A stretch of DNA of 44,449 nt from Perkinsus olseni. Taxonomy: Eukaryota. The stretch covers positions 1 to 44,449 of the forward strand of contig JABANN010000273.1 of assembly GCA_013115125.1 (NCBI GenBank). The letters run 5' to 3'. Shown one piece after another: positions 29,101 through 35,100 of this stretch. The translations under genes and the position numbers were made by a program. Under the pieces are notes generated by a model. It was not told the DNA's origin and did no database searches. It saw nothing but the letters and a program-made list of their open reading frames with translations. Each line of letters begins with the position of its first letter. The first letter of the stretch is position 1.

Positions 29101-32100
29101 AGTGCAGCTCTTTCTGCGCGCGAAAATCCAAATTCCGTGGATCTCGGAGTCCAGTTCACGATGCCTCCACCCACCTCTCCTCCACCTTACCATTCTCCGA
29201 TGGTCTTCATAAATGTCATAGACATTCGTCAGCAACTTCAGTTGTTTCTCCAAAATTACCAGTTCCACATAACTTGTTATCGGCAGATTGAACAGCGTCT
29301 CCGATCTCACCAACTCCTAATAAACCAACGAGACACATTGAAGCCGCGAAGGTTGGCAGATGACGAGAAAGAAATTCGAATCCTGAGAACCTCGGAAATT
29401 TGTTCCGACCTCCTTCCTCTTCAAACGCTGGTTCATCTCGTTTTGGTATTTCCTCATGAGCTCAGCCCCTTCCTCCAGGTTAACATCGTCTGTGCCTGGT
29501 TGAGATATCTTGCCTCAACAGGTCCAGATAAGCTCTTGGAGGTCGTTTTTGATACATCACTTCAAGCCCGTCTAGCTCAGTCGGTAGAGCGCAAGGCTCT
29601 TAACCTTGTGGTCGTGGGTTCGAGCCCCACGGTGGGTGTATTCATATATAAGACTCACGGTTTCCTTCGCGATTACTAATTCATGCACCCCTCAACTTCC
29701 ACAAGCACACAACGGCAGCTAACACCTCTTCATGAACCTACCTGGTCCTCCAGCACTGAAATCATCGAGTAGCTTGCTACATTCCGCGCTGAAGTCCACA
29801 ACCTGACCACAACCACCGCAACCAGTCATGCCAAAGCAGCAAACTGGGATCATCGAAGTGGGTACTGTACCAACAATCGGTAACAACAACTTTCCACCGA
29901 GCGAAGATGATAATTCCACCGACGCGCCAACAGGAGCGATCCTCCAACTCAGGCCACGCAGGCCCGAATCGCCACCACCCACCTCCTGCTTAGTAATATC
30001 TGCGAACTCAATCTTGCTCTTCTCAAGAGCCAAGTCCTTCGCCCGAGAGTATCTCTTCAAACTCCTCCACGAGTCGGGTAGACGATCAGCCAAGCTCAGC
30101 TCCTCCGCCTTCACTTTGCACTTGTATGATAACAAAGTCCGATACCTGAAATCCGCAGAATCCCGATCCACTTCCCTAGTACCCCCTCTGCCGTGTACAC
30201 GCTCACACCACGATTATCGAACACGACTGATCAGGCGCACTCAGCCCATCCCACTAGGGAGAAGCAGCAACGGCAGTCAGAATGAAACCCCTCAGCCCAC
30301 GGTGGCCTTACTTTTCCCTAACATCAGCTATCCGTATTTCCATATCCATATGGACTGCTTCAATTGTCGATATCGTGTTGAGCATGGACTTCAACTCCTC
30401 CAACTTAGTTGGCGTAAAGTCGATATTGTCCTTGTGGTCTCTTATTTCGACCTGACAACAAGTGGTGCGTGCGGGCTGATGATACCTTCTTATAGCGAAA
30501 CGACTTCTCAACCCACGAGAATCGTCAGACCGTGCAAGGATACTGAATTGATATAGCGTTCAACAGTCGCCGTTGAAATGGTTAAAACAGGTTATCCACA
30601 GGATTGTAGCATGAAATCCCTACTCGTATTTTATCCAAATCCTTTGACGCCATATCCGCTAGTATTCTTCCATACTCCCTCGTCCACTCCTGCGCTTGGC
30701 TCCGGATACCTGCTACACCACACCTCCTCAAAAACACTCTCCGGATGACTTTCAGTGATCCCTAGATGAGCTAACGACGAGCTAGATAGCCTAGAGTGTA
30801 CTCTCGATATTCGCTCTTTCACGCAGGAAAGATCGCCTAACGTCAGCACCCAGCAACCACCAACCTGTGATGATGGCGCTGCAGTCCACACGAATGAAGG
30901 CCACATCATGATCCCTCTTCTGTTCCAGCATAGTTTCCACCAGATTTTTATAAACCTTCAGGTGCGCGTCAAAATAGCCCAGACCATGCTTCTTCTCGAC
31001 CGCAACTCGCTCCAAATCCTGTCGCCTCTTCACGTCCCACAACCCCCATTGGGTATCATATTTCTTCCAGCTGCGCATGAACTTGTTAATGGTTTGGAAC
31101 ACTTGCTGGACCGAATTCTGGATGGTCATGGTCATCTCGATCAGAGCTGGGTTCTGTGAGACGTCCTTATAGAAGGAAAAAGCCAAGGCTTTCTCCTCAT
31201 CCAACTCTGTGGACTGCGTCGGGACCTGAGAAAGATGCGATCACGAACCCAAGCACATCCATGATATGCAAGCATCAACCTAGGATTCCCCGAGACATGA
31301 ACACCGCTCATGCAGATTTCCCACCACTACCAATAAGCAGGTTCCGTCCATCCATCTCACAAAGGCCGCGGAACTATGCAGGACGTTCTGTAGGAGTTTT
31401 GTTATCAACTTGAAGACTCCATGAAGAGAGCCCACAACAACCTCAGGAGGGTTGAACTCCGATCTGATCTTGATCAGCGGCGGTCGTTGGTTGCCCTCCG
31501 CAGCTGTAGAAGTCAAGAGCACCTACAAAGGCCCAACAGCATATGACCCGACGGAAGCCAACCGACCGTCGCATCTTCTTCCCAGATTTTTTACGGAGCA
31601 AATCTCTGTACGGTTCGAGATAAGACGTTTTACAGAGCAAGACTCTATCGCAGCTACACTATCACGCCCGCCCAGTTTACCTGAAAGGTGCTCAGCCCTC
31701 TGACCAGTGCCGTCGTGATTGCATTGAAGAATTTCCTCTCCCAATACGCGTAATACTCCCTCATGCTCTCAGCCGCCCCGGACTTCGTTCCCGCGGTAGT
31801 TTCCTCTATTTTAATCAGAAACGGCCCAATAGCCTCGTACTGATCTACCAGCTTCTCAACCTCGCTCAGCCGGTGAGTCTCGAAGTAATCGTAAAACTCC
31901 TGAACATCCATGACCCGCTGGTAGTCGCTGCTCGAGTCCACAGAATCCTCAGCAAGAGTGCTGGTCGAAGGCGACGGACTGAGATCTGTTTTCGTCCAGT
32001 CGAACGGTCGGACCAAAATCGATTGCTCGATCGATTCAACAACTGCTTGAACTCGCTCTTCGGACTTCTCCACTTGCTCTCTGATATTCCTGAATGCCGC

Positions 32101-35100
32101 GATACCGCGAGTAGCCGACTCGATGAAGTCGACGATTCCGAGACTATTCCAATTGAGCGGGGTCAGCCCGGGGCGCAAACACTTATGGAGATCCGCAATC
32201 TGTGTGTGCAGCACCTTGCATTGTACCTAAAACACCGTCACTGCGCCACAAAATTGTAACCCCCAAGTGCCACAAACGACATATACCCTCGCCGGGATTC
32301 GAACCCTGGACCTACCATCGTCAGTCCTCCAATCGCCTCCTCGTATCCTCGCAGCATCACTCTCAGTTGTTCAGCATAGTCCTTGTACTTATCCATCTGC
32401 AGCGCCAGATTGAGCACCGCCCCCGGGAGCTCGAAGCCGCCGATCAGATCGAAATTTTGCGCTTCCTTCATCAGCTCTATCAGCTCCGGAGCCAAGTTCA
32501 CCACGTAAGTTGACGAAGCTCTCCCTTCATGCCTCTCTACAGCCAGAATGCTCCGATTCAAGCATTCCGTCGCCGTCACCACCGCCGCTGCCTTCCGCCA
32601 CTCTCCGAAAAGATCCTTTTCATATTTCAAAATCGCCTTTCCAAGTTCCACGTAATCACCACAGGCCTGCTGGCCCTTAGGACTGTCCAGCAACGACTGC
32701 ATACTCCTGAGGGCGATGATGGGCCGCTTTACTCGCTCCAGAATATTTCGGGCCCAGGCGATCGCGCCCGACACCGGCGGAGCGCCCTTCGCGACTCGGG
32801 GATGGTCCTCTGAAAACGGAAAACAGTTGGACTCTACCAAAGGGCGACGGCCATGATCTGTGCGAGAAGGCGTCGATTATTGAACTCACCCTACTATAGC
32901 GATAATCGAGCGCACAAAAAGGATGATTCACTTCCGCACTCGCAGAGCTTCCAATGATACGCCTTAAAAAGAAGTCGACTTTTCTGCTGACACAGATCAT
33001 ACTCTCCCGAGCTAATATTCTCAGCGGTTCAGCCGCCTACAGTAAGCGGCGTATTGACGAAAGACGTGCCGCCGCTCATCATGCTGGGGAGCCGCAGTGC
33101 ACGGCAGTGAGCGACACGACGAGTGTGACGGCTGCCGACAGGAGACATATTCTCGACTCTGACTACTGTCTCTTTGGAAGAGCTCCGTCATCCGACGGAC
33201 TTCATTGCCGTACTGCACCACAATGTCCGCGAACTTCTCGTTCATCTTCTCATTTATCCGCTCACGACTTTGGATCGACTTGAAATTCTGCAGAAGCTGG
33301 AAGGCTCCCTCTGCTGAACGTAACTGACATGAGGAGACCAAAGTCGTCCCGCACTGGAAGGACTTCAGTAACTCTGGTTCTCCGACAGATTCCACATCAC
33401 CAATGGACAGAATGCGGAAAATAAACACACCCACCGTGGGGCTCGAACCCACGACCACAAGGTTAAGAGCCTTGCGCTCTACCGACTGAGCTAGACGGGC
33501 TTACGGTACAATTACTGGCAACCATCTTCCAGAAGATCATTTAGACAGCCAAGAAGGCCATCCAACGGCACAGAATCCCGCCGAGAAGGTAGAGTGTGCT
33601 ATATGAGAGCCGACGAGCTACCTGTCTGAATCTTGTGTCGAGGAAGACGATTGCCTTATCCTCGATCTCGACAGTTTTCTCTCTGAACTGCTGCATAACC
33701 CTGTCCCAAGCCTTCCGGTGCCTCTCGTCGAAGCATTCGCTGAAGGTTTTGAACGCAGCTGCTGAGCTTGCCACTTCCTCGAGGAGGTTATCGATGCCCA
33801 CTGGGTCGCCTGTAACCTGGACCATAGACATGAGGGGACGGATAAACATATAGAGCGACTGATAACGAAGGGCTGTGCCGAGAATTGAACTCGGGACCTC
33901 TCGCACCCTAAGCGAGAATCATACCACTAGACCACACAGCCGATAATACCTAATTGAAGCACACCTCTTCCTCACCTCTTTCAGCTCCGGCCCAAGGAAC
34001 TTATAGAACTGTTCCAGCACCTTTGTGATCTCCATCAAATCACCACATATCTTCGACATGTATTTCGTTCGCTTGAACAGCTTGGCTCTGTCAAACTCCC
34101 ACCTGAGCCCTCAACACGTTCGTACCACCCCGAACGACCCAAACAAGAAGGGAAATCAGGAACATGGGGTTCCTGCGAGCATACTCAAGAGATCTCGAAT
34201 CGAACTAGGCCGAACATAGGCCATTCCGGCTCACGAAAAGTCTCCAAGCGTAATATCGGAGGACGCAGCTCGAACCATGTGAATTGCGAGGGTCTTGCTC
34301 ATCATATTTTTCAGCGGGCCAGAATTTCCTTCAAGCCGCAGTCTCGTCCGACTCTCTCCCCCCGACAGCCCACCTGTGATCTGAACCGCTCTCCTCGATC
34401 CTCGATCGCGTCTCCATGTAGCTCCGCTCCCAACCGTCCAAAGTCGCCTTGCACCGCCCCACAATCGCTCCCGCCCTCACTGGACTTCTCCTCAACAACG
34501 CCCGAACGCTAATCTGATCATTCACCCTCCCCGCTATCTGCTCGGCTATTCGAGTGAGCAAAGGCTCCATCCTTTCGTCTGTGTTGTAGTATCTACAGAA
34601 GGACGTTATAAGTCGCTCAAGTTGGCTCGTTAAACGCCGGAGAGAGAGCGCAAGGCCGAGAGCGGAGACTAAACTATCCGTTGATTACCACAGACGAACT
34701 ACAAGGAGGTGAACAGATCTTGTGACGATATTTTCACATCGGGCATCGAGCTGCCAATGAATCAATTAGATTTTGTGTTCTTCATTTCTGTGTGAGGTCC
34801 GAACAGTCAAGAAAAGCTGAGTTCATCGGGCTGTTAGCCTCTACACCGCAGCCACACATGAGAATACCGGAACCCATCTCGAGCAGCAAGGAGCTCCGAC
34901 CACAGAGCGGAGCGAATACCCAAGAGACGCAGACTCTCCGATCCAATCACCAAGTTGAGAATACATCGCCAACATCAGTTCTCTAACGGGCACCCAAGCA
35001 CCAGTTACCTGCTCACAACCCAGACCATCCTGAGCGCATTGAGCAGGTTTGGAAGGGTCTCCGCGATCTCAGTCATCCCCCCGTTCGTCAGCTTTTTCAA

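Follow-up and report, generated by a model that had tools for sequence, protein, structure and literature searches.

Three intact transfer RNA (tRNA) genes lie in three separate short introns of a single flagellar dynein heavy-chain gene in the shellfish parasite Perkinsus olseni. The stretch of DNA analysed here, called the window below, is the 44,449-nucleotide (nt) contig JABANN010000273.1. Its minus strand carries a gene predicted to encode an axonemal dynein heavy chain of the DNAH10 type, whose introns hold one tRNA-Pro gene and two identical tRNA-Lys genes. Three further introns of the same gene hold short sequences that look like the decayed 3' halves of tRNA genes. We favour the view, with a probability of about 0.62, that the three tRNAs are independent genes of RNA polymerase III (Pol III), nested in the dynein gene as a by-product of genome structure and not through a dedicated mechanism.

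The full window was searched with ARAGORN and with the Rfam tRNA model (RF00005, gathering score 29 bits). ARAGORN called three tRNA genes, and Rfam at its gathering threshold returned the same three and no others (Table 1). An earlier note on this DNA had described three intact tRNA genes, each in a short dynein intron of its own, and ARAGORN returned the same identities, anticodons and strands: Pro (AGG) and one Lys (CTT) in the sense of the host, and a second Lys in antisense. The Rfam alignments of all three cloverleaves covered positions 1-71 of the 71 positions of the model. The A box in the D arm and the B box in the T arm together form the internal, type 2 promoter of Pol III. When the three genes were aligned to the Rfam consensus, the invariant D-loop and T-loop positions that belong to these boxes were retained in each of them, and a motif search also found the T-arm motif in all three. 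Several weak matches to Rfam models of the small nucleolar RNA (snoRNA) kind (E 0.7-3.5) were all under the gathering score and were taken as chance.

The 3' flanks of the three genes were inspected, and none of them encodes CCA after the tRNA. Descent from retro-copied mature tRNAs was therefore ruled out. The sense and antisense tRNA-Lys genes are identical at 73 of 73 positions, and the DNA that flanks them is unrelated. The two loci are alike for only 2 nt before the tRNA and about 7 nt after it, which ruled out a common mobile element around both genes. Complete identity within unrelated flanks fits selection or gene conversion acting on functional genes. The best explanation of these results is that all three are ordinary nuclear tRNA genes of the cytosolic type, one tRNA-Pro(AGG) and two identical tRNA-Lys(CUU), and their activity is predicted from the sequence.

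The host introns were modelled with a purpose-written protein-to-genome spliced aligner, guided by two P. olseni proteins (P0001 and P0152). In all three cases the tRNA lies wholly between a GT donor and an AG acceptor, and the flanking exons are in frame. The alignment gave the same lengths (159, 298 and 246 nt) and the same ends as the earlier note, which had also described the host junctions as canonical and in frame. The junctions of P0001 and P0152 were reproduced, and the ends of the intron at 29741-29496 were obtained independently with a distant full-length homologue, P0016. The two P. olseni DNAH10 gene models leave out exactly these three introns. For the intron at 29741-29496, an alternative acceptor at 29514 would give an intron of 228 nt and is also in frame; it was dropped because both the P. 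olseni model and P0016 support 29496. Two adjacent "introns" of 68 and 85 nt near 29.9 kb, proposed by the P0152 alignment, were regarded as an artefact, and a single intron of 180 nt was used in their place. At the DNA level, our results confirm that the three tRNA genes are nested in canonical, in-frame introns, whose splicing is predicted.

The tRNA genes keep some distance from the splice sites. tRNA-Pro begins 34 nt from the 5' splice site and ends 53 nt from the 3' splice site; the corresponding distances are 121 and 104 nt for the sense tRNA-Lys, and 103 and 70 nt for the antisense tRNA-Lys. The introns with tRNA-Pro and the sense tRNA-Lys are neighbours, separated by an exon of 195 nt. 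Each tRNA makes up 25-45% of its intron (72 of 159 nt for tRNA-Pro), and removing it from introns of 159, 246 and 298 nt leaves 87, 173 and 225 nt, respectively.

The host itself was identified by protein comparison. GC skew is strongly negative from about 14 to 42 kb of the window, and the long open frames of that region are on the minus strand. Among solved structures (PDB), the top match of the open reading frame (ORF) at 32238-32876 was human DNAH10 (residues 670-840, E 5e-20), and so was that of the ORF at 20620-21612 (residues 2745-3039, E 4e-88). DNAH10 was thus the first PDB match in the tail as well as in the motor region. In tblastn, the full-length homologues P0016, P0014 and P0007 were collinear with the window from 35236 down to about 11145, over residues ~250-4589. 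Because the top matches in both regions are DNAH10 and the homologues are collinear, the host is identified from its predicted protein as a DNAH10-type (inner-arm I1/f) axonemal dynein heavy-chain gene with a span of at least 24 kb; the earlier note had likewise named DNAH10. The N-terminal exons lie further upstream than 35236, where no reliable model was obtained. Its close database relatives are only two partial NCBI proteins, both named "Dynein heavy chain 10, axonemal, partial [Perkinsus olseni]", which are the guides P0001 and P0152, and their exons are 91-100% identical to the window. A search of representative proteins returned full-length homologues of at most ~52% identity, with no Perkinsus protein among them.

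Table 1. Host gene, tRNA genes, tRNA-bearing introns, candidate terminator and putative tRNA relics, in window coordinates (slashes mark splice junctions)
Feature	Position	Strand	Description	Support or remark
Host gene, DNAH10-type (inner-arm I1/f) axonemal dynein heavy chain (predicted)	11142-35236	minus	part collinear with full-length homologues	
tRNA-Pro (anticodon AGG)	33870-33941	minus, sense to host	72 nt	ARAGORN; Rfam 56.9 bits
tRNA-Lys (anticodon CTT)	33428-33500	minus, sense to host	73 nt	ARAGORN; Rfam 64.7 bits
Second tRNA-Lys (anticodon CTT)	29566-29638	plus, antisense to host	73 nt	ARAGORN; Rfam 64.7 bits
Intron with tRNA-Pro (predicted)	33975-33817	minus	159 nt, phase 0, gag/GTGAGG...CCAG/gtt	P0001, junction LKE/VTGDP
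Intron with sense tRNA-Lys (predicted)	33621-33324	minus	298 nt, phase 0, cag/GTAGCT...TCAG/tta	P0001, junction RFRQ/LRSAEG
Intron with antisense tRNA-Lys (predicted)	29741-29496	minus	246 nt, phase 1, cag/GTAGGT...CCAG/gca	P0152, junction GGPG/TDDV
TTTT run, candidate Pol III terminator	33418-33421	minus	starts at +7 after the sense tRNA-Lys	within TTTATTTT
Putative tRNA 3'-half relic	32296-32312	minus, sense	at the 5' splice site of the 89-nt intron 32315-32227	
Putative tRNA 3'-half relic	26363-26379	minus, sense	within the 95-nt intron 26411-26317	
Putative tRNA 3'-half relic	20177-20193	plus, antisense	within the modelled 49-nt intron 20213-20165	

To place these introns among the others of the gene, we modelled 68 introns on the minus strand from 34373 to 11207: 13 with the P. 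olseni proteins, 51 with P0016 and 4 from a further model based on P0016. Together they account for 9,743 of 23,474 nt, or 41.5% of the modelled span. Their median length is 100 nt; 26 of the 68 do not exceed 60 nt, and 29 have more than 150 nt. The three tRNA-bearing introns (159, 246 and 298 nt) belong to this ordinary long class. In these models, which are mostly approximate, the lengths look bimodal: the 26 short introns cluster tightly at 41-59 nt, and the 29 long ones spread widely above 150 nt.

Putative remnants of tRNA genes were found in other introns of the same gene. A motif for the tRNA 3' half (the end of the variable loop plus the T arm) had six mismatch-free matches in the window, where 0.04 were expected, and none of 100 shuffled sequences gave more than one. 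Three of the six matches are the intact tRNA genes, and the other three fall in further modelled dynein introns (Table 1). A B-box pattern was also enriched, with eight matches against 1.81 expected, a number that none of 100 shuffles reached. The relic at 26363-26379 includes a 14-nt exact match to the T arm of tRNA-Lys. A relic of the variable loop and T arm (GTAGGTCC...) stands exactly at the start of the 89-nt intron. In the 49-nt intron, the antisense relic is followed by an acceptor-like strand and a run of five T; together these make up most of the intron, and the complement of the T run supplies its GTAAAAAG 5' splice site.

The T stems of the three relics are imperfect and keep 2-4 of the 5 pairs. 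When the 151-nt stretches around the relics were given to Rfam, no tRNA match was returned. The relic at 32.3 kb had a marginal T-arm match within the tRNA clan (tmRNA model, 6 bits, E 0.87) and an insignificant match to the mascRNA model (E 9.1). As Rfam calls none of them a tRNA, the argument for the relics is carried by the motif statistics alone. No 5'-half relics were found with a 5'-half motif, which matched only the two tRNA-Lys genes and is a narrow pattern. We consider it well supported but not proven that the three sequences are remnants of tRNA genes. Their presence in three further introns suggests rapid birth and death of tRNA genes inside the dynein introns.

Two weaker matches to the B box alone were also noticed. 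One is in antisense within a modelled 45-nt dynein intron (25661-25705). The other is on the minus strand at 3896-3905 and is followed by a run of seven T and then by an acceptor-like end (...ttccag); it probably lies in an intron of a neighbouring gene.

Our preferred explanation is that each tRNA would be a Pol III unit of its own, driven by its internal A and B boxes, and that the spliceosome would remove the host introns normally. If the Perkinsus genome is gene-dense and has a very large tRNA complement that turns over quickly, introns would form a large part of the DNA that tolerates insertions. Copies of tRNA genes could then enter introns in either orientation, last for a while and decay. 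Published figures for a related species support these premises: Perkinsus marinus has more than 500 copies of five tRNA species alone (PMC3706591) and 23,654 genes in 87 Mb (PMC7789003). For the genus, a LOTTE-seq study lists 50 expressed Perkinsus tRNAs (PMC9550989). The mixed orientations of the three genes, the antisense tRNA-Lys that is identical to the sense copy, the single terminator and the relics nearby all fit birth and death of tRNA genes wherever insertion is tolerated.

Several of our results weigh against this explanation. A run of four or more T, the terminator expected of a Pol III gene, was found close to the 3' end of only one of the three genes, the sense tRNA-Lys, where TTTATTTT begins 3 nt downstream; four T is our yardstick here and may not be the one used by Perkinsus. 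For tRNA-Pro the first such run is 449 nt downstream, beyond the intervening exon, and is the candidate terminator of the sense tRNA-Lys, and for the antisense tRNA-Lys it is 674 nt downstream. Normal Pol III termination is thus not evident for these two genes. The acceptor stem of tRNA-Lys, as read in the sequence, contains three G-U pairs; all its pairs are still standard, and the G-U pairs are common to both copies. The motif used for the relics was composed after two of them had already been noticed. Finally, 51 of the 68 intron models are approximate, their guide P0016 being only ~45% identical.

The same gaps in the termination signals could mean that some or all of the three genes are recent duplicates or converted copies with little or no transcription, on their way to becoming relics. 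Two of the three lack a nearby oligo-T terminator, and decayed 3' halves are present in three other introns. In Caenorhabditis, nested tRNA genes turn over rapidly (PMC3342880), and the Pol III occupancy of intronic tRNA genes is lower (PMC4999229). We nevertheless consider this unlikely, as all three genes form complete, high-scoring cloverleaves and the tRNA-Lys pair has diverged at 0 of 73 positions despite unrelated flanks.

A further alternative is that the sense tRNAs, tRNA-Pro above all, depend on the host. RNase P and RNase Z would free them from the dynein pre-mRNA or from the excised intron, so that the supply of these tRNAs would be tied to flagellar gene expression and cleavage before splicing would lower the amount of dynein mRNA. 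Two of the three genes are indeed sense to the host. tRNA-Pro occupies 72 nt of a 159-nt intron, and downstream of it neither the remainder of that intron nor the exon that follows contains a run of four T, the first one being 449 nt away. There are also precedents in other organisms: the authors of PMC4999229 describe release of sense tRNAs by intron splicing as theoretically possible, and tRNA-Sec of Trypanosoma brucei is transcribed by RNA polymerase II (Pol II) (PMC2943599).

The remaining evidence makes such a route rather improbable. Every copy carries the A and B boxes within the tRNA sequence itself, so Pol III transcription would be possible for each of them, and the sense tRNA-Lys has an oligo-T run of its own. 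The antisense tRNA-Lys, identical to the sense one, cannot derive from the host transcript. RNAs cut from introns, such as mirtrons and intronic snoRNAs, would be expected to be all in sense, and here two of three are sense and one is antisense; the relics are mixed as well (two sense, one antisense). In Caenorhabditis elegans, only 56% of intronic tRNA genes are sense to the host (PMC4999229). The mixed orientations and the identical antisense tRNA-Lys thus favour independent Pol III transcription over maturation from host introns. Within the host-dependent route, maturation from the intron is most plausible for tRNA-Pro, which lacks a terminator of its own; for the same gene, a Pol III read-through precursor that spans Pro, exon and Lys is another possibility. 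The earlier note had suggested such maturation, or cleavage of the pre-mRNA, for the sense copies, and had also raised the idea that small introns serve as a compartment for tRNA genes. The three further introns with relics give the compartment idea some local support, and both this role and a special biogenesis are less likely than the passive explanation.

A bolder reading concerns the Perkinsus genome as a whole, and we regard it as very unlikely on present evidence. It holds that the tRNA genes of a hyper-expanded family mainly arise and decay in the spliceosomal introns of Perkinsus, and that tRNA-derived DNA helps to make or remodel introns. It was considered because the 49-nt intron is nearly all antisense tRNA 3' half plus oligo-T, the complement of which is its GTAAAAAG donor, because the 89-nt intron begins exactly at the relic GTAGGTCC, and because the tRNA-Pro without a terminator may come from the dynein intron or from read-through of Pro, exon and Lys. 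If this reading were true, inserted tRNA genes would supply intron sequence or might even give rise to new introns, and the supply of tRNAs would be tied to the transcription of host genes.

Least probable of all is that the tRNA genes and the B-box relics act chiefly on the host, as chromatin elements bound by TFIIIC or as structured RNA that modulates splicing: B-box-like T arms are kept in three further introns where no 5'-half relic was found, and intronic tRNA-like sequences reportedly affect splicing in human cells (PMC7722341), but no sequence feature demands such a role, the relic T stems retain only 2-4 of 5 pairs, and the absence of 5'-half relics may stem from the narrow search pattern.

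Nested tRNA genes as such are already known, most fully from C. elegans. In that species 264 of 608 tRNA genes are nested (PMC3342880, Table 1), and another study counted 44% of 609 tRNA genes as intronic, a share that is not different from chance, with 56% of them sense (PMC4999229). The Perkinsus genes resemble them in several respects: complete genes lie wholly inside introns of protein genes, usually one per intron and in both orientations, identical copies occur at separate loci, and birth and death appear rapid. They also differ. The host belongs to the Perkinsus lineage of alveolate protists, in which the arrangement is here known from DNA alone, and three introns of a single gene are occupied, with relics in three more. 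The dynein introns are very short (median ~100 nt, many of 41-59 nt), so that a tRNA fills 25-45% of its intron.

The tRNA-Sec of T. brucei (PMC2943599), mirtrons and intronic snoRNAs offer another comparison, as small structured RNAs in sense within a Pol II transcript from which processing enzymes could free them. The Perkinsus tRNA-Pro is like such Pol II-dependent or intron-derived RNAs in having no oligo-T close by. Unlike them, the Perkinsus tRNAs retain the internal promoter positions typical of Pol III genes; there is an antisense copy among them, and one of the sense copies has a T run of its own.

Within the genus, P. marinus has an unusually large tRNA complement, with for example 349 Leu and 116 Gly copies (PMC3706591), so three tRNA genes in 44 kb are unremarkable. 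That study dealt with Dada transposons inserted in tRNA genes, and in its accessible text intronic tRNA genes are not the subject. Our case differs from it in that no transposon is present at the three genes, and in that the genes are Lys and Pro as against Ile, Leu, Gly and Tyr.

In yeast there are sites of TFIIIC that consist of a B box only, known as "ETC" sites. The three relics are like them in that a B-box-like T arm is kept while the remaining parts of a tRNA gene are missing. Unlike the yeast sites, the relics have degenerate T stems and are known from sequence only, and decay of tRNA genes explains them equally well.

Searches for the same arrangement elsewhere gave little. Relatives were sought with the ORF at 33541-33918, which starts within tRNA-Pro and extends into the exon that follows, and none of the 24 candidates scored. 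In a metagenome scan with the P. olseni protein, none of 31 loci contained a tRNA, and none reached the orthologous introns. Most of these loci are ~19-31% identical to the query; three are ~60% identical and cover query residues 1-109 only, short of the tRNA introns. We found no description of intronic tRNA genes in Perkinsus in the literature searched, which did not include subscription journals and closed supplements. What is new here would thus be the lineage, for which no such description was found, together with the relics.

If the nesting is a mere by-product, as we favour, its chief value lies in annotation. Programs that predict genes in Perkinsus should allow for tRNA genes and their relics in very short introns, and tRNA counts should not rely on intergenic DNA alone. 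The finding would gain weight if most of the hundreds to thousands of tRNA genes of Perkinsus proved to be intronic. Three questions could in that case be studied in Perkinsus, a single-celled organism with tiny introns: how Pol II and Pol III interfere with each other, how RNase P and RNase Z compete with the spliceosome for the same RNA, and how tRNA genes decay into intron sequence. The most interesting by-product of this analysis is the set of relics in introns of minimal length, a concrete lead on tRNA turnover and on the origin of intron sequence.

Other features of the window were recorded beside the tRNA genes. Three near-perfect palindromes, whose arms of 24-25 nt are separated by a single nucleotide, were found at 13438-13488, 7630-7680 and 35840-35888, with arm complementarity of 100% in two of them and 79% in one. 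The first takes up the greater part of a dynein intron modelled at 13506-13425 (82 nt), and the last is inside an intron modelled close to the 5' end of the same gene. The palindromes may be hairpin-type intronic elements.

When ten neighbouring ORFs were scanned against Pfam, the sole signal was a sub-threshold match to an EF-hand pair (27.5 bits, cutoff 30) in a 368-aa open frame at 1754-2860 on the minus strand. Upstream of the dynein gene, in the region ~39870-43000, a unit of ~760-815 nt occurs in four tandem copies that have diverged to 60-82% identity; their ORFs had no Pfam match, and the repeats may represent a tandem gene family.

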